64,000 nucleotides of DNA. Source: an uncultured Alphaproteobacteria bacterium (GTDB lineage Bacteria; Pseudomonadota; Alphaproteobacteria; Rhizobiales; Rhizobiaceae). The notes below the pieces were generated by a model that was not told where the DNA came from, did no database searches, and saw only the letters and a program-made list of their open reading frames with translations. Below are positions 31,651 to 58,295 of this stretch, in pieces; within the stretch, counting starts at the first letter, position 1, and every line of letters begins with the position of its first letter. The translations under genes and the position numbers were made by a program. Where the stretch lies: positions 266,632-330,631 of the forward strand of contig CAWBRU010000002.1 of NCBI GenBank assembly GCA_963791325.1, in the 5' to 3' direction.

Positions 31651-32129
31651 GCACCTATGGCGGCGGAACATCGATCGCCACCGGGGCAACCCTTCAGCTC
31701 GGCAATGGCGGCGCGGGCGGCTCGATCGCCGGCGACGTCACCGACAATGGCATGCTGATTTCCGACCGATCGGATTCCGCCCAGCTTTCGGACGTGATCT
31801 CGGGTTCGGGCAGTCTCAAGAAAATCGGCTCCGGCGACCTCCTGCTCGCCGGCAGCAACACCTACGCCGGCGGCTCCTCCCTCGGGACCGGAAGCCTGAG
31901 CCTCGGTTCGAACACGGCGCTCGGCTCCGGGCAACTGACCATGCAGGCCGGGACGACCCTTGACGCGGCCGCACCTGGTCTCGCGGTCGCCAATTCCATC
32001 AGCCTCGCCGGCGATGTCGTTTTCGACAGCGGAGCCAATCTTTGGCAGCTGGCCGGCAACATCGGCGGGCCGGGTGGTTTCACCAAAGAGGGAACGGGAA
32101 GCCTGTCGCTGACCGGCCGCGAGAGCTAT

Positions 32130-34960: not shown

Positions 34961-36882
34961 CTATTCCGGCGGCACGGTGGCGGCGGCCGGCACGCTGGTC
35001 GGCTCGTCCGGGAGCCTGGGCAGCGGTGCCATTCTGGACAACGCCGCGCTGGTTTTCGATCAGCAGGCAGACGGGACCTTTGCCGCCCCGATCTCCGGCA
35101 GCGGTACGCTGGAAAAGAGCGGCACCGGGCAGCTCTTCCTCACGGCGATGAGCGCGCTTTCCGGTGCGACCACGGTGAGCGCCGGCACGCTGGTGGTCGA
35201 GGGTTCGCTGGCCGGCTCCGCGGCAACCGTCCTGTCGGGCGCCACACTCGGCGGCTCAGGCACGGTCGGCGCACTGACGGCCGAGAGCGGCGCAACGGTC
35301 GCCCCCGGCGCGGCGGTGCCGTTCTCCACCTTGAACGTCGCCGGCAATGCCAACTTCGCGCCCGGCTCGATCCTTGCCGTCTATGTCGGCCCGGGAGGCC
35401 AGAACGACAAGCTCGCCGTCGGCGGCACGGCAACGCTGTCGGGCGGCACAGTGGTGGTGACGCCCCAGTCCGGCACCTATACGCCGCTCAGCCGCTACAC
35501 GCTGGTGTCGGCGACCGGCGGTGTGTCGGGCCGTTTCGCCGGTCTGACCACCCCATCCGACGTTGCCGACAGTTTCGCCTTTCTGTCGCCGGAGCTTGTC
35601 TATGGCCCCGAGAGTGTGACGCTCGGCTTTACCCAGACCGCCGACTTCCCGACATTTGCCGGGACCGGCAACCAAGCCGCTGTCGCCGAGGCACTGCAAG
35701 CGCTCGGCCTCGGCAACCCGCTTTATGATGCGGTGATCGGCCAGAGCCAAGCCGGTGCCGAACAGGCCTTCAATGCGCTGTCGGGCGAGGTGCATGGCAG
35801 TCTCGCAACGGCCACCTTGCAGGACTCCGGTCTCGTCCGCGCTGCCATCCTCGATCGGCTGAGCGGGACAGGCTCGGCGCCGGCTGCCGACACCGAGCCG
35901 CCGGCGACCACCGCAGCGCTTGCGCCTGGGATGGCGCCGGCTTTCTGGACCCAGGCCTTCGGTGTTGACGGCCGCGGCGACGGCAATGGCGATGCCGCCG
36001 CGATGACGCGCTCAACGAGCGGCGTCCTCATCGGCGGCGATGTCGGCGGCCTCGATCTTTTCCGCGGCGAGGCCCGGCTGGGAGCGGCCGGCGGCTATCT
36101 CCACGACAGCCTCGACGTGCCGGAGCGTAAGTCGACTGCCACCGCCGAGCAAATCTTCGCAGCAGTTTACGGCGGTGCCCGGTTCGGCCAGGTCGTGACA
36201 AGCCTCGGCGCCGCTTACAGCCATCTCAATCAAGACAGCAGCCGGCAAGTCTTGTTTCCCGGCTTTGCCGAAGGCGTCTCGGCCGACGGTGACGGCTGGC
36301 TCGGCCAGATGTTCGGTGAGATCGGCTATCGCGTCGACCTCGACGATCCGCTGGGCGGCAGCGGGGCGGTCACCAGCGCGATGATCGAGCCGTTTCTGGG
36401 CGGTGCCGCCATCCACCTCCACCAGGACGGCTTTGCCGAGACCGGCGGGACGGCGGCGCTCACCGCCGCCGGGCAGAGCCAGGATCTGGAAACCACCACC
36501 CTCGGGGTCAGGCTCGAGAGCGAGCTCGCCATCGCCGTGCCGTTTACCTTCCACGGCCTCTTCGGCTGGCGCCATGCCTATGGCGATGTCAGCCCCGAGG
36601 CGAGCCTTGCGTTTGCCGGCGGTGCGCCCTTCACCGTCGCCGGGGTGCCGCTCGACCGCGATGCCTTCGTCGCTGAGGCCGGGCTCGAGGCAAAGCTCGG
36701 TGGGCGTGCCGGCTTCGGCCTGTCCTATACCGGCCAGTTCGGCAGCCGGGGGTCCGAAAACGCCATCAATGCGCGGCTCACCGTGAACTTTTGAGGGTGT
36801 GCTGACCCGTCAGCGTTTCAGGTCGTGCCGTGGTCGGCATCTCGGCGGCCAGAACATCGGATCAACGCGCCGCAAGCCGGCT

Positions 36883-37806: not shown

Positions 37807-40800
37807 CTACCACCTGACCGTCAGGCCGAGATTGGCCTCGAGGACCCGCTCCTTCGCGCCGCCCAGACCTAAGGTGTAGTCGCCGGTGGCATGGATGCTG
37901 ACATGCTTGCCCAGCGCAGCCACCACGCCGCCGCCGAGGTCCAAGGCGGTGCCGCCGATTTCGGTCGTAAACGGGTTGCCGTCGAAACGCACGGTGTCGG
38001 TGGTCGGGAAATAGTCCCAGACATTGGCCTTGAGGTAGGGCTGCAGCTTACCGTAGGGCGTTTCGAAGTTGCCCGCCAATCGCAGCCCTACCCTGCCGGT
38101 CAAGCTGTTGCCGGGCTCGAGCGATACCGTCGAAAACTCCGTCCGGGTGTCGTCGAACCAGAAACGCTGCCAGATCAGCTGAGCTTGCGGCTCCAGCTGC
38201 CAGCGCGGCGACAGCACGAACGGATAACCGGCCTCGAGGGAGGCGGTCAGCCCTCTGCCGTCGGCGTCGATGCCGACGCCGCGGTCGGAATATGCCTCGC
38301 CGCCGTAGAAATCGGCACTGGCGATGGCATCGATGTAGCCGCCCGTCGGCCCGACATTGGTGTAGTAGGCGCCGACGCTGTCGGTGTTGAGATGCACGCC
38401 GCCCAGCGTGCCGAGCCCCGGCAGCAAGTTCGGTTCGGAGATGCCGGCATCGGCCGTGACGTGCCCGTAGAACAGGCCTGCGGTGTGGATGTGCCCATCG
38501 CTGGTCTCGGCGCGCAGCATATCGAGCCCGGTCTGCAGCCCCCACAGATGGCCGTCGAGCGCGGGCGAGATCTCGCCTTGCCAACCCTGATCGAACTGGC
38601 GGCCGAAGAGACGCCCCCAGGCGGCCGAGAAATCGTCCCCGGGAACGAGCACGTCCTGATCGCCGCGGCGCTCGTGGAAGGTACTGGTCAGGCGCGCCGC
38701 CAAGGCGATCGATTCGGCGACGGGGACTTCCGGGCTGATCGAAGTGGTTCTGAGGTACCAGTCCTGCGGCGTGCCGCCGCCCAACCCGCCCTTGAACAGA
38801 TTGTAGTCGTAGCCGCCTGCCGACACGGTGTTGCCGAGCGCAAACCCGTCGGCGCTGGCGCCGTTCAGCGCTTCGACGACAAGAATGCCGTCGCTTGCGG
38901 TGCGCGCGCCGTGTCCCCCTCGGTTGGTGACGAAGAGGCTGGTTTGGCCGCTCGCCGCGCCGCCGTCGATGACGATCCGGTCGGAGGGTGAGCCGTCGGC
39001 GCCGAGCACGGTGTTGATCGCCGCCGTGGAGCCGGGTCGGCCGACGAGGTTGCCAATCACGACGAGCCGGTTGCCGACGCCTTGCCCGCCGATCTGCAGC
39101 AGGCCGCCATTGTCGAGGGTTCCGTCGACCGTGAAGGTGCCGTTGGCGCTGCCGGCAAAGACTGGCAGGGCGTCGGCGACCGCGACCGTGCCCTGGTTGG
39201 CGACCATGCCGGCAACGCTGCCGTAGCCGCCGAGCGTCGCGCCGGCGACGACATCAACGGGACCGCCGCCGGACAACGCCGCACCGGAATGGGCCGGATC
39301 GCCGACCGCGAGCGTTCCGGCCAGCACGGCGGTGCCGCCGGAATAGGGATCGTCGGCGGTGAGGATTGTGGTGCCGGATCGGATCTGTGCCACGGCGCCG
39401 GCACCGGAGATGACACCGCCGAAGGTCACGGTGTCGGAGCGGTCGAAAGCGAGCACACCATTGTCGAGCACGTTGCCCATAACGCTGCCGCTGGTGCCGC
39501 CGTTGCCGAGATGCAGGGCGCCGGCCGAGATCGTCGTGCCGCCGCTGTAGGTGTTGTCGGCGGTGAGCACCGTGGTGCCGGTGCCGATGTGGGCCAGGGA
39601 GCCGGTCCCAGAGATGATGCCGGGGAAGGTCACGGTGTCGGAGCGGTCGAAGGCGAGCACACCGTTGTCGAGCACGTTGCCGACGATGCTGCCTGAGGTA
39701 CCGCCGTCGCCGAGCTGAAGCGTGCCGGCCGAGATCGTCGTGCCGCCCGCATAAGTGTTGTCGGCGGTGAGCACGGTGGTGCCGGGACCGATCTGGGCCA
39801 GGGACCCGGTTCCCGAGACCAGGCCTGCAAAGGTCACGGTGTCGGACCGGTCGATGGTGAACTGGCCGTTGTCGAGCACATCGCCCAAAATGCTGCCGGT
39901 GGTGCCGCCGGTGCCGAGCTGCAGCGTGCCGGCCGAGATCGTCGTGCCGCCGCTGTAGGTATGGTCGGCGGTGAGCACCGTGGTGCCGGTGCCGATCTGG
40001 GCGACGCTGCCGGTGCCGAAGATCGTGCCGCCGAAGCTCAACGTGTCGGCACGGTCGAAGACGAGCCGGCCGTCGTCGCTGACATCGCCCACAATGCTGC
40101 CGCTGGTGCCGCCATTGCCGAGCTGAAGCGTGCCGTTCACGACCGTGGTGCCGCCGGTTTAGGTGCTGTCGGCGGCGAGCACCGTGGTGCCCGTCCCGAT
40201 CTGCGCCACGTAGCCGGTGCCCGAGATCACGCCGGGAACGCTGAACCGATCGGAACGGTCGAAGGCGAGCACACCATTGTCGAGCACGTCGCCGATGATG
40301 CTGCCGCTGGTGCCGCCGTTGCCGAGCCACAACGTGCCGTCGGCAATCGTGGTGCCGCCGGTATAGGTGCTGTCGCCGGTGAGCACGGTGTCGCCGTCGC
40401 CGAATTGCAAGACGCGCCCGCTCCCGGAAATGACGCCGGGCACGACCAGCATATCGGCGCGGTCGATGCCGAGCACGCCGTTGTCGAGCACGTTGCCGAC
40501 GATGCTGCCCGAGGTGCCGCCGTCGCCGAGCTGCAAGGCGCCGGCCGAGATCGTCGTGCCGCCGGTATAGGCATTGTCGGCGGTGAGCACGGTGGTGCCG
40601 GTGCCGATCTGGGCCAGGGACCCGGTTCCCGAGACCAGGCGGGGGAAGGTCACGGTGTCGGAGCGGTCGAAGGCGAGCTGGCCGTTGTCGAGCACATCGC
40701 CCAAAATGCTGCCGGTGTCGCCGCCGTCGCCGAGCTGCAGGGTGCCGGCCGAGATCGTCGTACCGCCGGTGTATGTGTTGTCGGCGGTGAGCACGGTGGT

Positions 40801-43346
40801 GCCGGGACCGATCTGAGCGACGCTTCCGGCGCCGAAGATCGTGCCGCCGAAGCTCAACGTGTCGGAGCGTTCGAAGGCCAGCCGGCCCTCGTCGAGCACA
40901 TCGCCCACAATGCTGCCGCTGGTGCCGCCATTGCCGAGCTGCAAGGTGCCGTCCGAGATGGTCGTGCCGCCATCATAAGAATTGTCGCCGGTGAGCACGG
41001 TGGTGCCGGTGCCGTATTGCCCGACGTAACCGCTCCCGGAAATGACGCCGGGCAGGACGAGCGTATCGGAGCGGTCGAAGCCGAGCAGGCCGTCGTCGAC
41101 CACGTCGCCGACGATGCTGCCGCTGGTGCCGCCATTGCCGAGAATTAACTTTCCGCCCGCAATCGTGGTGCCGCCGGTATAGCTGCCGGTACCCGTCAGA
41201 ACCAAGACCCCGAAGCCGGTTGCGGTGAGCCCGCCGGGACCATCGCCGTTGGCGATCGGTCCCGAAAGCGTCAACGTATATCCCGATGTGTCGACGGTGC
41301 CGCCGGCTGTGTTCACGAAGAACGGGTTGGCGAAAGACAGGTTGTCGCTGACGGACTGGAAGGTGCCGCCATCGAAGACGCCGGCACCGGTGCCGATCGA
41401 AGCGTTGTCGGTGACCTGAAGCGTGCCGCCGGTCATCGTCGTGCCGCCGGAATAGCTGTTGGCAGACACCAGCGTCAAGGTGCCGGCGCCGAGCTTGGTC
41501 AGCTGGCCTGGTCCGTCGAGCATCTGCCCGACGGTGAAGATGTTGGTCGGGTCGGCGATGTCGAAACCGCCGCCGCCGGGACCCCAGTTGAAGACGCGCG
41601 GCGTCGCGGTAAAGGTGGTGCCGGTCACCTGCAAGGTGCCGCCGTTGAAGGTGATTGCCCCCGCGGGGCTGCCGAGATTGTTGTCGGCCGAAACCGACAC
41701 CGTGCCGCGGGTCAGAGTGGTGCCGCCGGTATAGGTGTTGACCCCGGCGAGCGTCGTCGTTCCGTCGCCGTTCTTCTCGATCGCCAGCATTCCGCCGGTG
41801 CCGCCGACGCCGTCGGAAGCGGCACTGCCGCCCGACCCGTCGAGGTCGGCGATCGCATCGGCAACGGTGTTGGTGCCGGTGCCGAAGGCGAGCGTGCCGC
41901 TCTGCATGAAGAAGCCCGAGCCGAACGCCTGCCCGCCGTTGCCGCCGGCGACGCTGCCGCCGCTGGTCACGCCGCTGCCGTTGATGGTGAGCGTGCCGCC
42001 GGAAACCACGAACACGGCGCCGCCGAGCCCGCCGCCGCCGCCGCCCGCTGTCGTGGCTCCGTTGCCGCCGGCGAAGCCGCCGACATTGTCGGTGGAACCG
42101 CCGCCGCCGAAGCCGCCGGCGCCGCCTGTGCCGTGGTTAGGGAGATCCGGGAGCGGTTGCCGAGCACCGCCGCCGCCGCCGAAGCCACCATCGGCGCCAA
42201 AATTGCCACCGCCGCCACCGCCGCCGAAGCCGCCCTCGGCGCCATTTCCGTACGGCACCGGATGACACCCTTCGCCACCGCAGCTCTCCACCGGATAGCC
42301 GCCGCCACCGCCCCCACCGAAGCCGCCATGGCCGCCATCGGCGAAGATACCGCCTCCGCCCCCGCCGCCGAAGCCACCATCGCCGCCGGTGCCAGACAGG
42401 CCGTTGGAGCTGCCGGCCAAGCCGCCAAAGCCGCCGCCACCGCCGCCCACGCCCCTTGTAGTCCCGCCGCCGCCCGTAGTGCCGCCATTGCCGCCGCCGC
42501 TGCCGCTCAGGCCCGAAATCGGCAGATTGCCGGCACCGTCCTCACCATCGCCGCTATAGCCCCCCCGGCAATCGACAAGCCGTTGCCGAACAGGCCGCCG
42601 CCTCCCCCCGGGTTGTCCAACGGGGAGGACTTGGTCGCGGACCCAAAAATGCCGCCGCCGCCACTCCCGCGGGGGCCGGAGCCACCATTGCCACCCAAGC
42701 CGCCGCCGCCACCGCCGAGCAGGTTCACCTTGCCGGTGCCGCCGTTGCCGCCCCTCGCCTGATTGCCGGTGAAATTGACGTCGGTCAGGGTGACGTCGGC
42801 GGATTGGTTGACGAACAGAGCGCCGCCGGCGCCAAGTCCGCCGCCGGCGCCGGCCCCGCCCGCACCGCCCTGGGCGACGCCCGACTCAAGCGTCAGCCCG
42901 CTGATCGCCACCTGCTGGCGCTGGGCGAGGATCGAATCGGTCGTCGGCGGGTTTCCTTGGGCGGTCGTCCGCGTCGCCTCGTCGACGCCGATCATGAAGA
43001 TGCGCGTGTTGTTGGCGGTGATCGTGTTGCCGTTGCCGACGATCGTCACCGAGTTGAAGATCGGCGACGGCGGCCCGTTCAGGGTCACGTTGCCGGTGAT
43101 CTGAATGGTGTAGGGCGGCCCGTTGCCGCCGCCTGCATTGACCTCGGCGATCGCCGCGCTGAGGCTGCCGGGCTGGGTGGTGCCGTTGGAGGCCGTGCCC
43201 GGATCGGTGCCGCCTGCCACGATAATCGTCGTCTGCGCCCACACCCCGTCCGTAAGACATGTCACCAAGATCACAACTGCAGCGCGGAGGCACCAGCCGC
43301 GGACATGTGCTCGCATAAAACTCATAACCGTCTCCTGCCTCCGCAA
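37807..43346 (-). pseudogene. type Va autotransporter (AT2, 1,846 aa if repaired) with a frameshift in a G7 tract (42560-42566) and an in-frame TAA (40159-40161)
   Basis: Signal peptide MRAHVRGWCLRAAVVILVTCLTDGVWAQ. It has a beta-helix-like head, a Gly-rich region, nine 68-aa repeats and a classical autotransporter beta-barrel ending LGLTVRW*. 5540 nt plus 1 gives 1847 codons. Confidence 0.8.
39300..41165 (-). repeat. tandem 204-bp (68-aa) coding repeats in AT2, 9 copies
   Basis: The unit is GTLQLGNGGTSGSIVGDVLDNGVLAFDRSDTVTFPGVISGTGSLAQIGTGTTVLTADNTYTGGTTISA. Copies 2-4 and 6-8 pair up, which indicates a higher-order ~816-bp duplication. Confidence 0.75.
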
Positions 43347-43393: not shown

Positions 43394-43436
43394 AGTCGCT
43401 GGTTGAATGACCATAGCCGAAGATTCGACCGCTCAT

Positions 43437-43472
43437 AAAAACCCCGGCCGAGGCTGGAGTGCTTCGGCCGGG
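43437..43472 (-). terminator. rho-independent terminator of AT3
   Basis: On the minus strand, the 9-bp GC stem CCCGGCCGA/TCGGCCGGG (43443-43451 and 43464-43472) is followed by a T5 run (A5 at 43437-43441 on the plus strand). It begins 16 nt after the AT3 stop codon. Confidence 0.6.
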
Positions 43473-43487
43473 CTTGTTGTGGTGGGT

Positions 43488-46400
43488 TTAGAACTGGACC
43501 TTGAGGAAGGCCGAGAAGGTATTGTCGGTGGCTGTCCTGCCGAACTGTCCGGCATAGGCGACACCGATCGCGGCGTTGGTGGTCAGCGCATAGTCGAGGC
43601 TGGCTTCGGCGACGAAGGCATCGCGGCTGCCCGCCGCGCCCTCGACGGTGAACGGACTGCCGCCCTGGAAGGCGAGCGCGGCGGTCGGGGCGGCATCGCC
43701 ATAGGCATGGCGCCAGCCGAGCATGGTGCGGGCGGTGAGCGGCAGGGCGCCGGTGAGCGCGGCTTCGGCGCGCAGGCCGAGCGTGGTGGTGGCGACGTCC
43801 TGGCTGGCCGCCAGCGCGGAGAGCGCGGCGAGGCCGCCGTCTTCGCCGAAGCCGTCCTGATGGAGGTGGACGACGGCCCCGCCGGCGAACGGCTGGAGCC
43901 AGGCGTGGCCGAGCGGCAGGCCGCCGAGCGCCGGGGCGGCGAGGTCGAAGCGATAGCCGGCCTCGCCGAACGCCTGTGCGGTGGTGCCGTGGCCCTCGGA
44001 AGCGGCCGCCTCGCCGAAGCCCGGGAAGACGATCCGGCGGTCGAGCCGGGTGGTGTTGCGGCTGTAGGCAGCCCCGGCGGAGAGCTGGACGGGACCATAG
44101 GCGGCACTGCCGTAAAGCGCGGCAAAGACGCTGTCGACACGGCCCGAAGAGGCGCGCTCGTCGACGTCGAAATTGTCGTGGAGATAGCCGCCGGCAGCCC
44201 CCAGGCGGGCGGTGCCGCCGGGGACGTCGAGGCCGCCGACATCGCCGCCGAAGATCACGCCGGCGGTCTGATGGGAGAGGGCGGCCACCTCGGCGTCACC
44301 GCGGTTGGTGCCGGTGTCGCCGATGGCTTGGCTCCAGAAGCCGAGCGTGTCGTCGGGAGCTTCGGCCGCGGCGCCGAAGCCGTGCCGGCCGGCGAGCGCC
44401 ATCGTCTGCCCGGCGGCGGGCGCGGCGGCCGGCCGGCTCAGGCGGTCGAGGATGGCGTCGCGGATCAGACGCTGGTCGCTCAGGCCGGCGGTGATCGCGC
44501 TGGCATGCGCCTCGCCCGAGAGCGCGTTGAAGGCCTGGCGGGCGCCGCCGGCATCCTGGCCGATCACCGCATCGTAGAGCGGGCTTGCGCTGCCGAGCGC
44601 CTGAAGGGCGTCGGCGACGGCCCGCTGGTTGCGGTTGTTGCCGGCGCTGGCGAGCTCGGCGGTCTGGGTGAAGCCGAGGGTGATGCCGCCGGCGCCATAG
44701 GCGAGCGACGGCGTCAGGAAGGCGAGGTTGGAGGTGACGTTGCCGAAGCTGCCGGTGACGCCGCCGCCGGCGGTCAGGATGGTGGCGTGGGTCGTCGGAT
44801 TGAACTTGCCGGCGCCGGCGGTGACGGCAAGGGTGCTGCCGCCGAGCGTGATGGTGCCGGTGGCGGCCAGGCGGTCGCTGCGGCCGTCGGGCAGGACGGT
44901 GACGGCCAGGGTCGAGCCGGAGGCGAAGCTGACATCGCCGGCGACCGACAGCGTGGTGATGGGCGTCACCAGGCCGGGCGCGACGGTGCCGCCGGCATCG
45001 ACGGTGAGGTCGCCGACGGTGCCGCCGCCGGCCAGCGTGGCGCCGGACTGGATGGTGAACGGCGAATGGGCCAGCGAGCCGTCGACCACCAGGGTGCCGG
45101 CGCCGACCGTGGTCGGACCGGAGAGCGGGCTGTCGCCGGAGAGCGTCAGCGTGCCGGCGCCCTGCTTGCTGAGTTCGCCGGTGCCGGAGATGACGCCGGC
45201 ATAGGTCAGCGCATCGCTGCGCTCGAAGATGAGCGCGGCATCGTCGACGATGTCGCCGGCGAGGCTGCCCGTGGTGCCGCCGTCGCCGATCTTGAGCGTG
45301 CCGCCGCTGATCGTGGTGATGCCGGTGAACGGGCTGTCGCCGGAGAGCGTCAGCGTGCCGGCGCCCTGCTTGGTGAGTGCGCCGGTGCCGGAGATGACGC
45401 CGGCATAGGTGAAGCTGTCGCTGCGGTCGAAGGTGAGCGCGGCGTCGTCGGCGATGTCACCGACGACCGAGCCGGTGGTGCCGCCGTCGCCGATCTGAAG
45501 CGTGCCGCCGGCAATCACGGTGCCGCCGGTATAGGTGTCGGTGCCGGAGAGCACCAGGGTGCCGAGATCGTCCTTGACCAGCGTGGCGGCGCCGGTGAGG
45601 TCGACGGCGATGGTGGCGGTGACGTCGGCGCCGTCCGAGCTGCCGTCGCCGACCCGGATGACCGATTGCGGGCCGCTCAGGGTGAGCGGGTCGCCGTCGA
45701 TGCGGTAGCCGTCGACGGTGAACTGCATGCCGGTGACGGCGACGGCGCCGCCGCTGTCGTCGACGGTGACCACGCCGGGCGCGGCCTGGAAGATGGCGAA
45801 GCTCGGCTCATAGGCCGAATTGACGGCGCCGTTGACGTCGGTCCAATTGTCGTCGGCCAGGGTCCAGGCGCCATCGCCGCCGTCGACCCTGTCGTTGTCG
45901 TGGTTGGCGGGCAGGCCGCCGTCCCAGAAGGTGAGCGTCTCGCCGCCGGCATTGACCAGATTGACCTCGTCGGCGACCGCCGTCTGCACCAGGAGGCCGG
46001 ACACCGGGGCGGCGCCGATGGTCATGCCGTTGTCGGCCAAGCTGCCGCTGTAGTCGAACAGCCGGTAGACGCCGACGCCGCCGATGCTCTCGACATTGAG
46101 CACGCCGTCGAGGGTGAGGTCGCCGGCGACGTCGAAGAGGGCGCCGCCGCCGGGGGCGCTCAGGCCGACATCGACCTGCGCATCCTCGCTGAGGCCGAGA
46201 GAGCCGGTGTGCAGGGTCTGCCCTTGGGTGCCCAGGAGATGGCCGCCGTCGTCGATCTCGACGGGGCCGCCGATGCTGCCCTTGCCGCCGAGTGCGGCAC
46301 CGCTGTCGACGATGACGGGGCCGATGGCGCCGTCGACCTGCAAGGTGCCGTCGGCGACCTCGGTCAGGCCGGTATAGGTGCTGGCGCCGGTCACGGTGAA

Positions 46401-49400
46401 AGTGCCGCTGCCGGCCTTGGTCAGCCCGCCGTCTCCGGAGATGACGCCGGAGAAGGTGGTGCTGGTGTTGTCCGAACCGGTGGTGAGATCGCCGCTGGCG
46501 ATCACCTGACCGGCGCCCGACAGCGAGCCGATCTGCTCGGCGAAGCCGTTGAGGTCGAGCACCGCGCCGGCCGCGACGGAGAAGGCGCTTCGGCCGGAGA
46601 AGACATAGTCGCCGCCGGCCGTGAGCGTTCCAGCCGCCACCGTGGTCGCCCCGGTATAGGTGTCAAGGCCGGAGAGCCTGAGCGTGCCGGCACCGAGCTT
46701 GGTGAGGCCGCCGACCGGCTCGAAGACATACCCGTCGGCGATCGGGCCGGACAGCGTGGCGAGGCCGGTATTGATGTTGATTTTGGTCTGGCCGGCGGTC
46801 AGCATCGCGTTGGCAAGGCCGCCTGAGCCGGTGAGGTCAAGGGTGCTGCCGCCCAACAGCGACAGCGTGCCGGTGCCGATGGTGCCGTCACCGGTGACCG
46901 CCAGCGTGCCCTCCGTGACCACGGTCTTGCCGGAATAGCTGTTGGCGCCCGACAGTGTGAAGGTGCCGCTGCCCATCTTGGTCAGGGAGCCGGTGCCGGA
47001 GATGATACCGGAGAAGGTCGTGCTGGTGTTGTCCAAGCCGGTCAGAAGGTTGTCGCCGGTGATGACCGAGCCGGCGCCGGCGAGCGAGCCGATCCATTCG
47101 ACATAATGGTTGAGGTCGAGCACCGCGCCGGCATCGACCGTATAGGCGCTGGCTCTGGAGAAGACATAGTCGCCGCCGGCCGTGAGCGTTCCAGCCGCCA
47201 CCGTGGTCGCCCCGGTATAGGTGTCAAGGCCGGAGAGCCTCAGCGTGCCGCCACCGGTCTTGGTGAGGCCGCCGACCGGCTCGAAGACATATCCGTCGGC
47301 GATCGGGCCGGACAGCGTGGCGAGGCCGGTATCGATGTTGATTTTGGTCTGGCCGGCGGTCAGCATCGCGTTGGCGAGGCCGGCCGAGCCGGTGAGGTCG
47401 AGGGTCGTGCCGCCCAACAGCAACAGCGTGCCGGTGCCGATGGTGCCGTCACCGGTGACCGCCAGCGTCCCGCCGCCCACTGCCGTGTTGCCGGAATAGC
47501 TGTTGGCGCCCGACAGTGTGAAGGTGCCGCTGCCCATCTTGGTCAGCGAGCCGGCGCCGGAGATGACGCCGGAGAAGGTCGTGCTCGTGTTGTCCAAGCC
47601 GGTCAGAAGGTTGCCGCTGTCGTGCACCTGGCCGGCGCCGGCGAGCGAGCCGATCCATTCGATGGAATTGTTGAGGTCGAGCACCGCGCCGCTACCGACC
47701 GTATAGGCGCTGTCTCTCGAGAAGACATAGTCGCCGCCGGCCTGCAGCGTGCCGGCCGCGACATTGGTCGGCCCGGTATAGGTGCCATTGCCGGAGAGCT
47801 TCAGCGTGCCGGCACCCGTCTTGGTGAGGCCGCCGACACCGCTGATCGGACCTGAGAGCGTCGCATTGTTGGCGCGGGTGTCGATGGTGCTGTCGGCATC
47901 GAGCCGGATCGGCAGATCGCTGGTGATCTGCGGTCCGGCGAGCTGTAGCGTGCCGCCCGTGAGCACCGGCCCCGGCGCGCCGCCGAGGCCGGACGCCATG
48001 GTGCAGCGCAGCGCGCCTCCCGTGTGCGCGACAAAGACCAAGCCGCTGGCCAGCATGGCATTGCCGTTAGAGCAGGCGCCGAGGTTGAATGGCTCGCTGC
48101 CGACGGCGATGGCCTTGCCGTTAGTGCCGGTCGTGAGGTCGATAGGCCTCACCGTGTTGCCCGCATAGCTCACGTAAAGGGTCTTGCCGTCCGGCGCCAG
48201 GGCGACGCCCGTCGGCGAAGAGCCGCCGCCAATATCGCCGACGCCGCTCAGAGTTTGAGTATCGAATTTTCTCACGAGGCCGAGTGCGTTTTGCGCGACG
48301 TAGAGGATCTTGCCGTCTTGCGACACCGCCAAGCCGTACGGCTCGCTCTTGTCAAGATAGGTGGATTTCGTGTCACCGGTCGATATGTCAATGGCATAGA
48401 TGTAGCTGTCGGTAGAGCTCTGTTGAATGCCCGAAGCGTAGACGGTCTTGCCGTCTGGGGAAATCGCAAGGCCGAAGACCATATGGTTATCGCCGCCGAC
48501 GTTGATGGGGGTTCCGGCCTCACCCGCCGCCAGGTCGACTGGGGTGACGATGCCGGTGAGCAAACTGGCCACATAGGCCGTCTCGCCGTCCGGTGCGATG
48601 ACTATCCTGCCCGAGCCGTCCATCGGGATAGACTTTCCGAACGTGCGGGCTTGAGTGCCGATCGGCACGATTCCGTTGTCAAATCCGACGTAAATGGTGC
48701 GGCCGTCGGGGGTAACGGCGATGCTCCTCGGTTTTGGGTCGCCAGGATTTACGGCGGTCCACTGCGTTACCACATTCGTGGCGGTATCGATCGCGAAGAC
48801 CCCGGTATCGCTTGCCACATAGACATGCGCCTGGTCGCTGCTGACCGAAACGGTCGATGGGATCTGACCGACGGAGTTGATGGTGGCAATCGTGGTATTG
48901 CTGGCGCTGTCGATGATTGATACCGAGTTGCCTTCGCTGTTGGGAACATAGATCAGCGTCCCCCGGTCGGCCGCCTGAGCCGCCGCCGTGCATAGCGCCG
49001 CCACACAGGCGACCGTGCTCAAATACCAGGCTTTGCGGCTGGCCCGGCGGCGGGCGCGATACCCCACGGGCTGTGCAATGGCCGGCAGCCACGGGGCGGC
49101 GAGCAGGCTGGCGGCGTTCGCTCGGGACCGGGTACAACCGGAACCGTCGCTCGCGCCGGCGCTCATGGCGGAGGCTGAATGTGTGTCACCCCGCCGTCCC
49201 GGCGCGCGTTCATTGATCAGCGATGCCAAGTCGATTGCCGTGCCTTTGGCTCCTTGCGACCGGCGCCGTCCTCTGAACGCGCCGGCACCCACTCTCATTT
49301 GCCCCATGGATTTGCCCCTCTTCCACCAAACAACTGTTCCGTTGTGCGGCTGTGACTTGACACAGGCACCGCCCACGGATGCTCTTCGCCCAAAAACAGT

Positions 49401-49424
49401 CTTACTGACGAGTGATTTCGTCAT
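43488..49424 (-). CDS. giant type Va autotransporter (AT3) with an N-terminal YVTN-type beta-propeller head
   Basis: Intact 1,978-codon ORF. The signal peptide KAWYLSTVACVAALCTAAAQA lies about 130 aa in, so the real start is probably the ATG at 49166 or 49307. Beta-propeller repeats are present (SPDGKTVYAS, DGKILYVAQN, DGKTLYVSY). PATR repeats and a beta-barrel ending FLKVQF* follow. Confidence 0.85.
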   Translation of the reverse strand: MTKSLVSKTVFGRRASVGGACVKSQPHNGTVVWWKRGKSMGQMRVGAGAFRGRRRSQGAKGTAIDLASLINERAPGRRGDTHSASAMSAGASDGSGCTRSRANAASLLAAPWLPAIAQPVGYRARRRASRKAWYLSTVACVAALCTAAAQAADRGTLIYVPNSEGNSVSIIDSASNTTIATINSVGQIPSTVSVSSDQAHVYVASDTGVFAIDTATNVVTQWTAVNPGDPKPRSIAVTPDGRTIYVGFDNGIVPIGTQARTFGKSIPMDGSGRIVIAPDGETAYVASLLTGIVTPVDLAAGEAGTPINVGGDNHMVFGLAISPDGKTVYASGIQQSSTDSYIYAIDISTGDTKSTYLDKSEPYGLAVSQDGKILYVAQNALGLVRKFDTQTLSGVGDIGGGSSPTGVALAPDGKTLYVSYAGNTVRPIDLTTGTNGKAIAVGSEPFNLGACSNGNAMLASGLVFVAHTGGALRCTMASGLGGAPGPVLTGGTLQLAGPQITSDLPIRLDADSTIDTRANNATLSGPISGVGGLTKTGAGTLKLSGNGTYTGPTNVAAGTLQAGGDYVFSRDSAYTVGSGAVLDLNNSIEWIGSLAGAGQVHDSGNLLTGLDNTSTTFSGVISGAGSLTKMGSGTFTLSGANSYSGNTAVGGGTLAVTGDGTIGTGTLLLLGGTTLDLTGSAGLANAMLTAGQTKINIDTGLATLSGPIADGYVFEPVGGLTKTGGGTLRLSGLDTYTGATTVAAGTLTAGGDYVFSRASAYTVDAGAVLDLNHYVEWIGSLAGAGSVITGDNLLTGLDNTSTTFSGIISGTGSLTKMGSGTFTLSGANSYSGKTVVTEGTLAVTGDGTIGTGTLSLLGGSTLDLTGSGGLANAMLTAGQTKININTGLATLSGPIADGYVFEPVGGLTKLGAGTLRLSGLDTYTGATTVAAGTLTAGGDYVFSGRSAFSVAAGAVLDLNGFAEQIGSLSGAGQVIASGDLTTGSDNTSTTFSGVISGDGGLTKAGSGTFTVTGASTYTGLTEVADGTLQVDGAIGPVIVDSGAALGGKGSIGGPVEIDDGGHLLGTQGQTLHTGSLGLSEDAQVDVGLSAPGGGALFDVAGDLTLDGVLNVESIGGVGVYRLFDYSGSLADNGMTIGAAPVSGLLVQTAVADEVNLVNAGGETLTFWDGGLPANHDNDRVDGGDGAWTLADDNWTDVNGAVNSAYEPSFAIFQAAPGVVTVDDSGGAVAVTGMQFTVDGYRIDGDPLTLSGPQSVIRVGDGSSDGADVTATIAVDLTGAATLVKDDLGTLVLSGTDTYTGGTVIAGGTLQIGDGGTTGSVVGDIADDAALTFDRSDSFTYAGVISGTGALTKQGAGTLTLSGDSPFTGITTISGGTLKIGDGGTTGSLAGDIVDDAALIFERSDALTYAGVISGTGELSKQGAGTLTLSGDSPLSGPTTVGAGTLVVDGSLAHSPFTIQSGATLAGGGTVGDLTVDAGGTVAPGLVTPITTLSVAGDVSFASGSTLAVTVLPDGRSDRLAATGTITLGGSTLAVTAGAGKFNPTTHATILTAGGGVTGSFGNVTSNLAFLTPSLAYGAGGITLGFTQTAELASAGNNRNQRAVADALQALGSASPLYDAVIGQDAGGARQAFNALSGEAHASAITAGLSDQRLIRDAILDRLSRPAAAPAAGQTMALAGRHGFGAAAEAPDDTLGFWSQAIGDTGTNRGDAEVAALSHQTAGVIFGGDVGGLDVPGGTARLGAAGGYLHDNFDVDERASSGRVDSVFAALYGSAAYGPVQLSAGAAYSRNTTRLDRRIVFPGFGEAAASEGHGTTAQAFGEAGYRFDLAAPALGGLPLGHAWLQPFAGGAVVHLHQDGFGEDGGLAALSALAASQDVATTTLGLRAEAALTGALPLTARTMLGWRHAYGDAAPTAALAFQGGSPFTVEGAAGSRDAFVAEASLDYALTTNAAIGVAYAGQFGRTATDNTFSAFLKVQF
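46350..47840 (-). repeat. tandem 561-bp (187-aa) coding repeat in AT3, about 2.6 copies
   Basis: The antisense ORFs 46660..46938 and 47221..47499 are near-identical and offset by 561 bp. The protein unit is GGLTKTGxGTLxLSG...GDYVFSRxSAYTV...TTFSGxISGxGSLTKMGSGTFTLSGANSYSG...LATLSGPIADGYVFEPV. Confidence 0.7.
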
Positions 49425-50263: not shown

Positions 50264-53200
50264 CTAGAACCCGACGGTGACGGTTGCGGAGATTGCATGG
50301 TCGGCCGCGGTTTTGCCGAACTGGCCGGAATAGCTGAGGCCGAGGCTTGACTGGCGGCCGAGCGGCAGAGCGAGGCCGGCCTCGGCGACCAGTGCGTCGC
50401 GATCGACCGGAACGCCGGCGACGGAGAACGGCTGGCCGCCCTGGAAGGCAAGGGCCGCGGTCGGCACGATATCGCCATAGGCATGGCGCCAGCCGACGAG
50501 GCCACGGATCTCGAGCGGCAGGGGTCCGGCGAGGGTCGCTGCGGCCCTGACGCCCAGCGTGGTGGTGGCGAGGTCCTGGCTGCCGGCAAGGCCGGTGAGC
50601 GCGGCCGGGCCGCCGGCCGCGCCGAAATCGTCCTGGTGCAGGCGGATCAGCGCCGCGCCGAGGATCGGCTGCCAGAACGCCGCCTCCAGCGCCGCCGGGC
50701 CGAGATCACGGCCGGAGAGGTCGAAGCGATATCCCGCCTCGCCAAAGGCCTGCGCCGTCCAGCCATGGCGGTCGGAGGAGGCGGCCTCGTCGAAGCCCGG
50801 AAAGGCGATCCGCCGGTCGATGCCGGTGCTCATCGAGCCGTAGGCGGCCCCGGCGCTGAGCTCGACGGCGCCGAACGAGGCGCCGCCATAGAGCGCGCCG
50901 AACAGCTGATCGAGATGGCCCGACGCGCCGCGCGCGTCGACGGCGAGGCTGTCATGCAAGGCGCCGGCGGCGGCTCCGAGCCTGAGGCTGCCGCCGGCGA
51001 AGGCGATGCCGCCGAGATCGCCGCCGAGGATCAGTCCGCCGCTGTCGCGCGACAGCGTCGCGGCATTGCCGTCGCCGCGGCTCGTGCCGGCATCGCCGAG
51101 CACCCGGGCCCACAGGCCGGCCGCCGCGCCGGAGGGCGGGCCGAATTTTTGGCGGCCGGGCAGATCGGCGTCATGGCCGGCGGTGAGCGCAAGGCCATCA
51201 GTGCCGCCGCCGGCGATGCCGGCGGTGGTGAACTCGCTGCCGGGCCCGGTGAGCGGGGCCGATGCCCGGCTCAGGCGGTCGAGCACGGCCTCGCGCACCA
51301 GGCGGCTGTCCTCGAAGGCGGCCGTCAAGACGCCGGCATGGACCTCGCCCGACAGCGCATCGAAGGCCTGGCGGGCGCCGCCAAAGCTCTGGCCGACGAC
51401 GGCGTCATAGAGCGGATTGCCGAGGCCGAGCGCCTGCAGGGCAGAAGCCGTCGCCGCCTGGTTGGCGGTGGCGGCGGCGGCGGCAAAGTCGGTGGTCTGG
51501 GCAAAGCCGAGGACCACACCGCCGGCATCGTAGCTCAGCGTGGGCGTCAGAAAGGCGAAGGCCTGGGAAAAGTCGGCCGGCGTGGAGAGGCTGGCAAAGC
51601 TGCCGGAGAGCCCTCCGGCGGCGGTGAGAAAAGTGTAGCGCGAGGCCGGCGTGTAGGCGCCGGGCGCCGGCGCCACCACGACAGTGCCGCCGGCCAGCGT
51701 GGCGGTGCCGGCGACGGCGAGGCGGTCGCTGCGGCCGTCGGGGGCAATGGCGACCGCGAAGGTCGAGCCGGCGGCGAAGCGGGCATCGCCGGCGACGCCA
51801 AGCGTGGTGAAGCGTGTCGCCAGGCCGGGGGCGACGGTCGCGCCGGCGCCGGCCGAGATCGCGCCGACCTGGCCGCGGCCGCCGAGCACGGCGCCCGGCA
51901 TCAGGCTGACGGCCGAGCCGCTGAGCGACCCGTCGACCACCAGCGCACCGGCGGCAACCGTGGTGCCGCCGGAGAAGGAGCTGTTGTCGCCGGAAAGCGT
52001 CAGCGTGCCGGTGCCTTGCTTGGTCAGGCCGCCGGCGCCGGCGATGACCCCGGAGAAGATCCTGCTGGAGTTGTCGCCGCCTGCCGTCAGCGTCGCAGCG
52101 CCCAGCATCACTGCACCGGCGCCGGTGAGCGAGCCGATCGTCTGATTGCGGTTGGCGAGATCGAGCGTGGCACCGGCAGCAAGCGTGTAGGCGCTCGCCG
52201 CGGAAAAGGCATCGGCGGCACCGGCCCGCAAGGTGCCGGCGTTGACCTGCGTAGCACCGCGATAGTTGTCGATACCGGACACGATCAGAACGCCGGTGCC
52301 CTCTTTGGTCAGGCCGCCGGCGCCTGCGATGGCACTCGACAGGGTTGCCGTGTTGGTGCCGGTGTCGATGGTGCCGCCGCCCGTGGCGAGCGTGATGGCC
52401 CGTCCGGTCGAGAAGCCGGTTAGCAACTGCAGGGTGCCGCCGGCGAAGCTGAGCCCGCCGGTCGAGCGGCCGAGATTGGCATCGGCCGATACGGCCAGCG
52501 TCCCGGCATCGAGGGTGGTGCCGCCGGTATAGGTGTTGGTGCCGGTCAAGGTCAGCGTGCCGGGTCCGGCCTGGGTGACGGAGCCGCTGCCGGTGATGAC
52601 GCCGCCATAGGTCATGGCATCGCTGCGGTTGAAGGTGAGCGCGGCATTGTCGACGACCGCACCGGTGATGCTGCCGTTGGTACCGCCGTCGCCGATCTGC
52701 AGCGTGCCGGCATCGATGGTGGTGCCGCCCGCATAGGTATTCACACCCGTCAAGGCCAGCGTGCCGGGACCGGCCTGTATGACCGAACCGGTGCCGGTGA
52801 TCGCGTTCGACAGGGTGACGGCAATCGCCTGGTCGAAGGTCAGGCTGCCGGTCACACCGATGTCACCGGTGAGAGACCAGCCTTGCTGCAAGGTCAGAGT
52901 GTTGGCGCCGCCGGTGAAGGTGATGGCATTGGCCTGAGTGCCGCCACTGGAGAGGCCGCCGGCGATCGTGCCGCTGTCGATCACCCTCAGCCCTGCACCC
53001 ACCACCCCGGCGCCACCGGAACCGCCGGCGCCGTCGTGGCCATTGTCCGAGCCCGCTCCTGTTGCTGTCGTCCCACCGGAACCTGCCTCCCCACCGGCTC
53101 CGCCCTGGATCGTTCCCGTATTGGTCAACTTCGCGCCGGCAGCCGAGGCGCTGAAGCCGGTTCCACCGTCGCCGCCATTGCCGCCATCGCCGCCGTAGCC

Positions 53201-54031
53201 GCCATAGTCATTGATTTTGCGGTAGCCATCGCCGCCATTGCCGCCTATCCCGCCCGTGCCGCCGGTGATGGTCGCGGTGTTGGTGACCGAGGCGGCACCG
53301 GTTTCGAGAAATCCGATCCCGCCGGCGCCACCGCCGCCACCGCCGCCACCGCCGCCACCGTCAGACGAGCCGCCGGCCCCGCCGGCTTCCCCGTTCTCTC
53401 CTGCCGTCGGCGCGGAAACGGTGAACGGCCCATCACTGGTGCCGCCGTTGGCGCCGCCATTGCCGCCGCCGCCGCCGCCGCCGCCACTGCTCTGGTCGTT
53501 GCCGGGTGTGCCATCCAGTCCCGGCCCGCCGCCGAAGGGAGGTGCGCCGCCTAGTCCGGGGCCGCCCTCACCGCCAGTGCCGCCGACCCCACCGCCGGAA
53601 CCGCCGCCGCCACCGCCGCCACCGCCACTGTTGTTAAAAAAGTCTTCGCCGTTTCGGCCGGACTGTCCGTCGCCGCCGCCGTTCCCGCCGAGGCCGCCGC
53701 CTTCTATCAAGGTACCACCGGCGCCCATGCCGCCCTTGCCGCCATCAGCGAAGGCGGGAGCCGCCGACAACGTCAGGGCAGCCGCGATGGCAATGAGGGA
53801 GACATGGCCGAAATGGATCGCGCCCCGGGCCGCGCGAGGTCGCATGCGTGTCGGTAGGGACCAAGACGGCGCCGACATGGCCGCGCCCCCATCACCGGGC
53901 GGGGCAGGTCGAAGAGCGGTGATGCAAGTCCCCCAATCCCTCGGCTTCAAGGGCGTCCCCCACCTGACCGCCAATTTCCCTCGTCCGTGCGGCAATCTCC
54001 TGCCGATCAGTCGCTGAAGGCCAAACGGCAA
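50264..54031 (-). CDS. type Va autotransporter (AT4) with a glycine-rich N-terminal passenger region
   Basis: Intact ORF. The probable start is the ATG at 53878 (MSAPSWSLPTRMRPRAARGAIHFGHVSLIAIAAALTLSAAPAFA). About 330 aa of Gly-rich sequence follow, including a G11 run. PATR repeats and a beta-barrel ending ISATVTVGF* complete it. Confidence 0.85.
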   Translation of the reverse strand: MPFGLQRLIGRRLPHGRGKLAVRWGTPLKPRDWGTCITALRPAPPGDGGAAMSAPSWSLPTRMRPRAARGAIHFGHVSLIAIAAALTLSAAPAFADGGKGGMGAGGTLIEGGGLGGNGGGDGQSGRNGEDFFNNSGGGGGGGGGSGGGVGGTGGEGGPGLGGAPPFGGGPGLDGTPGNDQSSGGGGGGGGNGGANGGTSDGPFTVSAPTAGENGEAGGAGGSSDGGGGGGGGGGGAGGIGFLETGAASVTNTATITGGTGGIGGNGGDGYRKINDYGGYGGDGGNGGDGGTGFSASAAGAKLTNTGTIQGGAGGEAGSGGTTATGAGSDNGHDGAGGSGGAGVVGAGLRVIDSGTIAGGLSSGGTQANAITFTGGANTLTLQQGWSLTGDIGVTGSLTFDQAIAVTLSNAITGTGSVIQAGPGTLALTGVNTYAGGTTIDAGTLQIGDGGTNGSITGAVVDNAALTFNRSDAMTYGGVITGSGSVTQAGPGTLTLTGTNTYTGGTTLDAGTLAVSADANLGRSTGGLSFAGGTLQLLTGFSTGRAITLATGGGTIDTGTNTATLSSAIAGAGGLTKEGTGVLIVSGIDNYRGATQVNAGTLRAGAADAFSAASAYTLAAGATLDLANRNQTIGSLTGAGAVMLGAATLTAGGDNSSRIFSGVIAGAGGLTKQGTGTLTLSGDNSSFSGGTTVAAGALVVDGSLSGSAVSLMPGAVLGGRGQVGAISAGAGATVAPGLATRFTTLGVAGDARFAAGSTFAVAIAPDGRSDRLAVAGTATLAGGTVVVAPAPGAYTPASRYTFLTAAGGLSGSFASLSTPADFSQAFAFLTPTLSYDAGGVVLGFAQTTDFAAAAATANQAATASALQALGLGNPLYDAVVGQSFGGARQAFDALSGEVHAGVLTAAFEDSRLVREAVLDRLSRASAPLTGPGSEFTTAGIAGGGTDGLALTAGHDADLPGRQKFGPPSGAAAGLWARVLGDAGTSRGDGNAATLSRDSGGLILGGDLGGIAFAGGSLRLGAAAGALHDSLAVDARGASGHLDQLFGALYGGASFGAVELSAGAAYGSMSTGIDRRIAFPGFDEAASSDRHGWTAQAFGEAGYRFDLSGRDLGPAALEAAFWQPILGAALIRLHQDDFGAAGGPAALTGLAGSQDLATTTLGVRAAATLAGPLPLEIRGLVGWRHAYGDIVPTAALAFQGGQPFSVAGVPVDRDALVAEAGLALPLGRQSSLGLSYSGQFGKTAADHAISATVTVGF

Positions 54032-57170: not shown

Positions 57171-58295
57171 CTAGAAGCTTCGCTGCGGTATTTTGACGGG
57201 GGTGGCGAAAAAAGCGCTCGACGCCTCAGCGGGGGCGAAGCCGAGCGCTCTGCGTGTCGCTTGCCAGATGACGGCCAACGCCTTCAGGCCAGCGCCGTAG
57301 AGCGTATGCGCGTCGTCATGCGGCGGTCCGCCGTTTTCGCTGCAGGGGCGGTCGAGAATGTCCCGGGCGATCAGGACATTGCCGAGGCCAAGCAATGCTG
57401 AGCTGTTCGGACAAAGACCAAGGCGGAAGGGAGATTGGCCGATCGGTAAGGGATCGCCCGGCTCCTGGGTGACAAGGTCGATCGGAGTGGTCACCGGAGC
57501 GAAGCGATCGGCGACGTAGAGCGTCTTGCCTTCGGGGGACAACGCCATGTCGAAAGGTGCTCCCGCGGCGCTGATCTCGGAACCGAAGCCGGAGGTGCGC
57601 GTGTTGAGCGGCAGGACGGTGTCGTTGGAGGTCAGCGCCACGAACACGGTCCCGCCGTCGGCAGAGACGGTGATGCCGCGAGGCGCCGTTCCGGCCTTGA
57701 GATCGAACACCGCATCGACGGTGTCGGCGATGCAATCGATTCGATAGATGAAGCTTGCCGAACTCAGGTCTTGTACGACCGCCGCATAGACGGACCTGCT
57801 GTCCGGTGTGACGGCAAGGCCGAATATCGAAAAGCCCGGCCCGCCGACCGCAACGGGCTTTCGCGCCCGGCCGCTGCGCAGGTCGAACGGCGTGACCTCA
57901 CCCGCGATCGATCCAGCGACGTAGGCGGTCGCGCCGTCCGGCGCGATGGCAATGCTGCCGGAGCCGTCGAGCGCGACGATCGGCTTGGCCCTCAACGACT
58001 GGGTATCGATGGCCACGACGCCCGGGTCATAGGAGACCAAAAGCTGGCCGCCGTCCGGCGTCATCGCCAGCCCTCTTGGGGTGCCCGAAACGGCGGTCGG
58101 CACCAACTGCAATCCGGGCTGTCGAGTATCGCGGACGAAGACGCCGTCCGTTCCGGCGAGAAAAGCGCGCACGCTGCCGTTGCCGGCCTGCGCGGCCACG
58201 CACAGCAAAGCCGCCAGCATGACCCCGCTCAACCGGCCAAGCCGGCAAAGCCGAGCCGAAGCACCAAGACGGACCTGCATAGTTGTCGAAGACAT
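57171..58295 (-). CDS. secreted YVTN-type beta-propeller protein, paralogous to the AT3 head
   Basis: Signal peptide GVMLAALLCVAAQAGNG. Blades include LAMTPDGGQLLVSY, IAIAPDGATAYVAGS, LAVTPDSRSVYAA, ITVSADGGTVFVAL and MALSPEGKTLYVAD. It is collinear with AT3 residues ~155-485. The last ~70 aa are unrelated. Confidence 0.75.
   Translation of the reverse strand: MSSTTMQVRLGASARLCRLGRLSGVMLAALLCVAAQAGNGSVRAFLAGTDGVFVRDTRQPGLQLVPTAVSGTPRGLAMTPDGGQLLVSYDPGVVAIDTQSLRAKPIVALDGSGSIAIAPDGATAYVAGSIAGEVTPFDLRSGRARKPVAVGGPGFSIFGLAVTPDSRSVYAAVVQDLSSASFIYRIDCIADTVDAVFDLKAGTAPRGITVSADGGTVFVALTSNDTVLPLNTRTSGFGSEISAAGAPFDMALSPEGKTLYVADRFAPVTTPIDLVTQEPGDPLPIGQSPFRLGLCPNSSALLGLGNVLIARDILDRPCSENGGPPHDDAHTLYGAGLKALAVIWQATRRALGFAPAEASSAFFATPVKIPQRSF

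Follow-up and report, generated by a model that had tools for sequence, protein, structure and literature searches.

The window analysed here, a stretch of 64,000 nucleotides from an uncultured alphaproteobacterium of the Rhizobiaceae (contig CAWBRU010000002.1, positions 266,632 to 330,631), carries on its reverse strand the gene of a type Va autotransporter, AT3, in which a YVTN-type beta-propeller precedes the stalk and the membrane barrel. In the ORF list AT3 is encoded by a single unbroken open reading frame (ORF) of 1978 codons at 43488..49424, to which the amino acid (aa) positions below refer, and the public gene call is exactly the 1939-aa product from M40, on a contig of 530,208 bp. 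The region 47970-48965 (reverse strand), for which an earlier sequence-only reading of this DNA had proposed the propeller, corresponds to aa 154-485. That reading had placed the domain after the signal peptide and before a PATR beta-helix stalk and the PF03797 barrel, and both its presence and its position within one intact ORF are borne out by our profile searches and structural modelling (Table 1).

Domains of AT3

The head is recognised by the YVTN repeat TIGR02276 of NCBIfam with 42 bits against a curated cut-off of 27.85 (E 6.8e-11), and weak to moderate matches to Pfam beta-propeller families are spread over aa ~140-460. All six blade motifs quoted in the sequence-only reading were found, together with a seventh, HVYVASDTGVFAID, at aa 200-213. 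A sequence database search returned 1493 homologues of the head at E<=1e-5, and phmmer against the PDB sequences matched it to the YVTN propeller 1L0Q with E 2.7e-26. An AlphaFold2 model of the head region, built on an alignment of 64 homologous sequences, had a mean predicted local distance difference test score (pLDDT) of 83.9, with values above 90 in most 10-residue blocks between model residues ~20 and 310 (aa ~159-449), and its ~28 strands make up seven four-stranded blades; it superseded a model from the single sequence with a pLDDT of 68.5. When this model was compared with the PDB by Foldseek, 1L0Q was the top match (E 6e-22, template modelling (TM) score 0.68, root mean square deviation 2.4 Å, 32% identity), followed by hydrazine synthase beta and then by seven-bladed WD40 or designer propellers, the latter with target-normalised TM scores (TMt) of 0.80-0.88. 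Other structural neighbours were the 6-phosphogluconolactonases 6NAU and 1RI6 (TM about 0.65) and the cobalamin-binding propeller lipoprotein BT2095. The head of AT3 is thus predicted to be a closed seven-bladed YVTN propeller, and it has no cysteines. The span of residues ~155-485 first given for it stands as regards the fold and the start of the domain but not its end, since the propeller proper stops near aa 450 and the residues from 451 to 485 are part of a distinct junction that contains cysteines.

The head does not reach the cut-off of any of the NCBIfam equivalogs compared, which is the case for YncE (NF052280, 43.8 bits against 400), the PQQ-dependent catabolism-associated propeller (TIGR03866, 93.6 against 287.3), hydrazine synthase beta (NF052340, 75.2 against 560) and the sub-threshold quinohemoprotein amine dehydrogenase beta. 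Its nearest relatives are surface proteins carrying PKD, Ig or T9SS sorting domains, which suggests that YVTN propellers are general surface modules placed on differing anchors. Against the GTDB representative genomes the only match of the head was a Marinicella propeller with 27% identity. From the sequence itself, IalB, a GC content of 67% and the Roseibium relative described below suggest an alphaproteobacterial origin.

Membership of the type Va class is carried by the remainder of the protein. The PATR beta-helix stalk comprises about 1080 aa, over which Pfam PATR (E 1.4e-68) and TIGR02601 of NCBIfam (E 5.8e-75) each find nine copies, and the 561-bp tandem repeats of its distal part were confirmed at 46330-47900 both by repeat search and by internal tblastn self-matches. 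The proximal stalk matches the EprS profile at positions 449-979, and aa 1408-1588, the C-terminal region of the passenger, match residues 428-613 of PDB 8E7F with E 7e-21. The barrel is covered by profile positions 1-254 of 255 of PF03797 (E 5.2e-49, 167.7 bits against a cut-off of 26), and the C-terminus, ...SAFLKVQF, ends in an aromatic residue, as in the outer-membrane beta-signal.

The start codon is uncertain, M87 and GTG-120 being alternatives to M40. The ATG at 49307 (M40) has GAGGGG 7 nt upstream, and the N-terminal MG[QK]MRVGAGAFRGRRRSQGAKG is retained in a divergent allele on contig L003, the first ~20 residues being conserved. The sequence RARRRASRK followed by WYLSTVACVAALCTAAAQA and a cleavage site before AD, ending at aa 151, looks by eye like a canonical signal peptide, and this segment is nearly identical in the L007/L003 allele. 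Ahead of it, aa 40-119 (49164-49307 on the reverse strand) form a possible extension of 80-110 residues, which in the L003 allele is conserved at both ends but variable in between. Possible readings are a signal region of unusual length and a conserved leader at the 5' end.

Table 1. Features of the AT3 locus, contigs compared with it and clusters that combine a propeller with an autotransporter barrel
Feature	Coordinates	Strand	Length or residues	Remarks
AT3, whole gene	43488..49307	-	1939 aa	start codon M40 to stop; frame open upstream to 49424
Signal-peptide-like segment	48972..49067	-	aa 120-151	(V/M)GYRARRRASRKAWYLSTVACVAALCTAAAQA; putative cleavage between AQA and AD
Predicted seven-bladed YVTN beta-propeller head	48075..48971	-	aa 152-450	TIGR02276, Pfam propeller hits, AlphaFold2 model, 1L0Q match
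Conserved junction	47865..48074	-	aa 451-520	C451-SNGNAMLASGLVFVAHTGGALR-C474, then GPVLTGGTLQLAG...NNATLSG into first PATR
Distal stalk	46329..47864	-		three tandem 561-bp (about 187-aa) PATR-bearing repeats, 75-77% DNA identity
Proximal PATR beta-helix stalk	44625..46328	-		PATR and TIGR02601 hits; 204-bp repeat pair (TRF)
Alpha-helical linker and 12-stranded type Va beta-barrel	43491..44624	-		PF03797 at aa 1696-1957 (43554-44339)
Autotransporter	30192..36794	+	2200 aa	
Autotransporter	37807..42450	-	1547 codons	in-frame TAA at 40159-40161
Autotransporter	50264..54031	-	1255 aa	
Stand-alone secreted propeller paralogue	57171..58295	-	349 aa (public call)	own signal peptide; cluster P0214/P0299
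Contig L004				separate assembly, same layout; about 97% DNA identity to window, collinear over head, junction and stalk
Contig L007				divergent lineage; propeller, junction and PATR in one 648-aa ORF, then 1237-aa PATR and barrel ORF in another frame
Contig L003				divergent lineage; collinear but fragmented
P0158			939 aa	propeller, (PATR), PF03797
P0186			954 aa	propeller, (PATR), PF03797; intact in 2.28-Mb contig
P0222			581 aa	propeller, (PATR), PF03797
P0245			1535 aa	propeller, (PATR), PF03797
P0259 (RefSeq WP_269583371.1)			1070 aa	Roseibium sp. Sym1, 'autotransporter domain-containing protein'
P0261			1039 aa	propeller, (PATR), PF03797
P0281			921 aa	propeller, (PATR), PF03797
P0216			1032 aa	propeller, (PATR), PF03797

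The junction and the relatives of AT3

Relatives with the same architecture were sought by an exhaustive search of 1.84 billion cluster representatives with a query that combined the head with the final ~140 residues of the barrel, and Pfam was run on matches that covered both parts of the query or in which an N-terminal propeller was followed by a long further stretch. Eight other clusters at 50% identity combine a propeller, (PATR) and PF03797. They share the domain order of AT3, that is signal peptide, YVTN/lactonase-type propeller, PATR and PF03797 barrel, with heads that are 31-42% identical to that of AT3. Most of them are about 920-1070 aa long with one or two PATRs, whereas AT3 has 1939 aa and a stalk expanded by the 561-bp repeats. 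The gene of WP_269583371.1 is intact in the complete 6.69-Mb chromosome of Roseibium sp. Sym1 (CP114786.1), and JGI has automatically named P0158 'autotransporter-associated beta strand protein/YVTN family beta-propeller protein'. The propeller head, which had been put forward as unfamiliar among autotransporters, is therefore not unique, and the design already stands in the databases under automatic names; what holds of that proposal is that none of these relatives is characterised and that the broad autotransporter reviews searched, including PMC9289746, mention no propeller passenger.

Between head and stalk lies a conserved junction. Beyond the signal peptide, C451 and C474 are the only cysteines of AT3, with 22 residues between them (Cys-x22-Cys), and the consensus C-(S/A/G)-x-G-(N/D)-x-x-L-A-x-G-...-C-T, then (G)PVFTGGTLQ...NNATLSG, leads into the first PATR. 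It is common to AT3, the L007 allele, P0158, P0245, P0259, P0261 and P0281/P0296, six sequences from five of the related families thus having it, while clusters P0186 and P0222 are without the Cys junction. In an alignment of seven sequences from six families the mean column identity was 72% and both cysteines were invariant, although the heads of these families are only 30-45% identical. Searching the junction and the proximal stalk against Pfam at E<=5 yielded no junction family and no autochaperone family. With the junction as a single query, the matches were two fragments of the same gene only, and a profile search gave short metagenomic fragments, of which about a dozen clearly span the junction, so that the size of the family is known only roughly.

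The junction also differs from its neighbours in the rate of change between AT3 and the L007 allele. It has 90% aa identity and a ratio of non-synonymous to synonymous substitution rates (dN/dS) of 0.16, as compared with 58% and 0.51 for the propeller and 58% and 0.77 for the first stalk repeat; within the propeller the loops are 52% and the strands 63% identical. These ratios point to purifying selection on the junction and hence to a functional constraint.

A stand-alone secreted propeller in the window, auto-named 'YncE' by JGI, is a paralogue of the head and is 41% identical to it over an alignment that begins at blade 2 and reaches the first junction cysteine, C295 in the paralogue (tblastn, blastp). 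Its second cysteine, C318, has the same spacing as the Cys pair of AT3, and the paralogue is closer to the AT3 head than any non-orthologous match listed in the database search with the head.

Age and integrity of the fusion

The DNA of the head was correctly described by the sequence-only reading as more AT-rich than that of the stalk. Its guanine plus cytosine (GC) content is 0.605, and 0.763 at third codon positions (GC3), against 0.68-0.74 and 0.88-0.94 in the stalk and barrel. A recent acquisition of the domain had been suggested on this ground, meaning that the head was captured or horizontally acquired onto an existing autotransporter, and the paralogue 8 kb away could in principle have served as donor. 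However, the adjacent genes (DUF4440, two epimerases and the stand-alone paralogue) have a GC of 0.62-0.66 and a GC3 of 0.75-0.78, equal to the GC3 of the head, and it is therefore the stalk, not the head, that stands out. The GC at the first and second codon positions is also lower in the head than in the stalk, so that the difference is partly one of amino acid composition and partly synonymous. In other members of the family the GC3 of head and stalk differs little or not at all (Roseibium 0.74/0.81, L009 0.82/0.83, L007 0.84/0.80). Head and paralogue, at 41% identity, have diverged far more than a recent duplication would allow, and the orthologous allele in L003/L007 has the same architecture. 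The same fusion with its conserved junction is moreover found in at least six families, including that of Roseibium, whose heads are 30-45% identical, which argues that the fusion predates the separation of these lineages. From these comparisons the joining of propeller and stalk is old rather than a recent acquisition of this genome, and we regard recent capture of the head as very unlikely.

The segment with a recent history would instead be the stalk and barrel, which the sequence comparisons mark as the anomalous part of the gene. Over a block of 3.8 kb (43431-47215, from aa ~737 of AT3 to the stop) the window is 100% identical to L007 without gaps, and its identity to L003 there is 99.6%; the match of L001 with L003 runs on for about another 430 bp, whereas the flanking housekeeping genes of these two contigs are about 85% identical. 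Either the export module underwent recombination or gene conversion very recently, or metagenome assembly across a shared repeat has produced a chimera. The idea that the head is hypervariable and the stalk constant was also considered and rejected, as the tblastn identities of 52-61% were partly an artefact of frameshifts in L004, the DNA of which is about 97% identical. The heads of L003/L007, with 62-75% DNA identity, have diverged to about the same degree as the flanks (about 85%) or somewhat more.

An exact repeat shared between lineages also invites the view that the fusion itself is a product of misassembly or sequencing error, or that the gene is a decaying pseudogene. In line with such a view, the nearest database proteins to the AT3 head are incomplete sequences of 185-469 aa that come from ENA metagenome assemblies, the neighbouring autotransporter has an in-frame TAA, and contig L001, which belongs to the window's own strain (99.7-99.9% identity), has an inverted piece of 458 bp and a deletion of 1.8 kb in the repeat zone. 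On each of the contigs with these fragments, however, PATR and autotransporter ORFs follow directly downstream of the propeller, and LexA, TrpD and IGPS are split in these assemblies as well, which indicates that the breaks stem from error-prone assemblies and that the unbroken ORF of the window, open over 1978 codons, is the best copy of the gene. The join of head, junction and PATR is unique sequence and is reproduced independently in the separate assemblies L004, L003 and L007. An intact 1070-aa member of the family lies in a finished Roseibium chromosome and a 954-aa member in a 2.28-Mb contig, and the signs of purifying selection on the junction are likewise difficult to reconcile with decay. 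We therefore consider an artefact or a pseudogene to be extremely improbable.

Some further differences concern L001 itself. The zone of inversion and deletion, L001 11095-11586, corresponds to 46329-48117 of the window, and the odd C-terminal tail of the database protein P0001 is an antisense frame read through the inversion. Downstream of the autotransporter stop L001 runs into MoeA/MoaC/TrpC, while the window has orf279 and further autotransporters.

Export, function and comparison with known passengers

Taken together, we consider it fairly probable that AT3 is a functional, classical type Va autotransporter whose long PATR beta-helix stalk bears a seven-bladed YVTN propeller at its tip. 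The precursor would be exported to the periplasm by Sec, after which BAM would insert the C-terminal barrel and the passenger would be threaded outward unfolded with its C-terminus leading. The beta-helix would fold outside, beginning at the end proximal to the barrel, and the cysteine-free propeller would emerge and fold last, closing its ring at the outer end of the stalk, at a distance of tens of nanometres from the cell. With its pair of nearby cysteines, the junction may serve as an adaptor or cap that couples the globular ring to the beta-helix.

How a globular propeller passes the barrel, or folds behind it, had been raised as a puzzle. The puzzle is weaker than suggested. Autotransporter passengers tolerate closely spaced disulfides only (PMC3546941), and a head without cysteines together with a single Cys pair 22 residues apart fits this known tolerance of the type Va pathway. 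The order of emergence is not exceptional either, since the protease heads of 'type 2' passengers, that is globular heads on a beta-helix stalk such as in Hbp and other SPATEs (PMC9289746), also emerge last. The export of AT3 thus needs no non-standard route.

As to function, analogy suggests that the head is most likely a non-catalytic module for binding or adhesion to a protein, a polysaccharide or another molecule. Such a role is suggested by its S-layer and surface-protein relatives, in which YVTN propellers serve in this way, by the failure to meet any equivalog cut-off and by the fast evolution of the head, as would be expected of an exposed recognition surface. Since the family occurs in environmental and symbiont-type Alphaproteobacteria (Roseibium), attachment to surfaces or partners would be likelier than classical virulence.

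Several observations weigh against this picture of AT3. The signal peptide was judged by inspection by eye and, with the start codon uncertain, may lie behind as many as ~80-110 residues. The Pfam autochaperone AC_1 is not found in AT3 even at E<=5, although the region does match the passenger base of 8E7F. The junction is poorly modelled by AlphaFold2, with a pLDDT below 50 over aa 454-485, and a dN/dS of 0.5 in the head may reflect relaxed constraint and not necessarily diversifying selection. No conserved gene neighbourhood of the propeller-autotransporter family was found at the loci compared, which leaves it without a hint to the ligand. Finally, the whole-sequence scores for Lactonase PF10282 (31.5 against 21.7) and SGL PF08450 (29 against 26.3) are marginally over their cut-offs, with no single stretch passing for the former and one for the latter.

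These last scores could mean that the head is catalytic, a lactonase, gluconolactonase-like or other hydrolase displayed on a stalk. The 6-phosphogluconolactonases among its fold neighbours are in line with this, and enzymatic heads are what the 'type 2' passengers bear (PMC9289746). Its best matches in sequence and fold are, on the other hand, the non-enzymatic S-layer YVTN propeller and the designer or WD40 propellers, no individual Lactonase domain match passes the threshold, and every enzyme- or cofactor-associated equivalog is far under its cut-off. In the heads with 30-45% identity, no invariant polar residues outside the YVTN motif were seen by eye. A catalytic head therefore seems rather unlikely, and we favour the binding module.

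It is useful to compare AT3 with known systems. The 1L0Q protein, a surface-layer protein of Methanosarcina mazei with a tandem of YVTN propeller and PKD, is like the AT3 head in being a seven-bladed extracellular surface module, but it is archaeal, is anchored through PKD/S-layer and has neither a beta-helix stalk nor an outer-membrane barrel. YncE of E. coli is a stand-alone seven-bladed propeller of the same superfamily as the AT3 head, although not an equivalog; it occurs as a soluble protein, secreted or periplasmic, and is not known as the head of an autotransporter. The 'type 2' passengers have in common with AT3 an N-terminal globular all-beta domain on a beta-helix and type Va barrel, but the heads of the SPATE/EprS-like proteins (PDB 8E7F) are proteases, whereas the head of AT3 is a propeller without a protease, lipase or esterase signature. 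EstA of Pseudomonas aeruginosa demonstrates that a type Va barrel is able to export a fully globular domain that is not a beta-helix (PMC9289746), but this is an alpha/beta GDSL lipase attached straight to the linker, with no stalk.

In the literature searched, including that from 2021 on, we found no description of an autotransporter passenger headed by a YVTN propeller. The only precedent found is the predicted propeller of XatA (AT-1) of Xylella fastidiosa, in which six LGxL repeats of 50 aa were predicted to form the ring (PMC3426408). By its description, to which our comparison is limited, XatA has a predicted propeller without YVTN repeats, and no combination of PATR stalk and junction is described for it.

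The design of AT3 is thus an uncharacterised variant of the type Va autotransporter within a small existing family that has a conserved, unannotated junction, and both of its building blocks are well known. The finding is solid and its impact modest, as no mechanism beyond the standard pathway is required. Published passenger structures are of three types, namely a beta-helix by itself, a beta-helix that carries an enzymatic head, and a stalkless enzyme; a non-enzymatic closed-ring propeller on a stalk would be a fourth passenger design. AT3 would offer a natural test case for the export and folding of large all-beta globular folds by the type Va pathway, which is relevant to the engineering of surface display, and its junction module is a concrete and testable element.

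It is tempting to go further and regard the combination of propeller, Cys-x22-Cys junction and PATR stalk as a distinct, undescribed class of type Va passengers with a dedicated adaptor, a receptor head and a cassette-like exchange, which is possible, although we hold it to be doubtful. The junction would then be an adaptor dedicated to letting a closed-ring fold sit on, and be secreted ahead of, a beta-helix, and the fast-evolving head would be a specific extracellular receptor, with a cofactor (as in BT2095), a molecule on the surface of a host or partner, or extracellular DNA (as reportedly in YncE) as candidate ligands. The identical block of stalk and barrel would in that case stem from real recombination by which heads are exchanged on a shared export module.

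AT3 lies in a region dense in autotransporters (30192-54031), in which four genes share stalk and barrel segments with 35-50% identity. The TAA in the gene at 37807..42450 sits in a PATR motif ('LAADST*TGGTTV' as compared with ..TYTGGT.. in other copies) and divides it into a 763-aa ORF with PATR and a 777-aa ORF with PATR, AC_1 and the barrel, so that it is either a nonsense pseudogene or contains a sequencing error. The N-terminal part of the autotransporter at 50264..54031, about 330 aa ahead of its PATRs, is of low complexity and extremely rich in glycine, with GGGGGG runs among N, D, S and T. Long ORFs antisense to the autotransporter genes (for example 43407..46826 on the forward strand, up to 1139 aa) were not taken for genes; they are Gly/Ala/Arg-rich and most readily understood as stop-free frames in repetitive DNA of high GC content.

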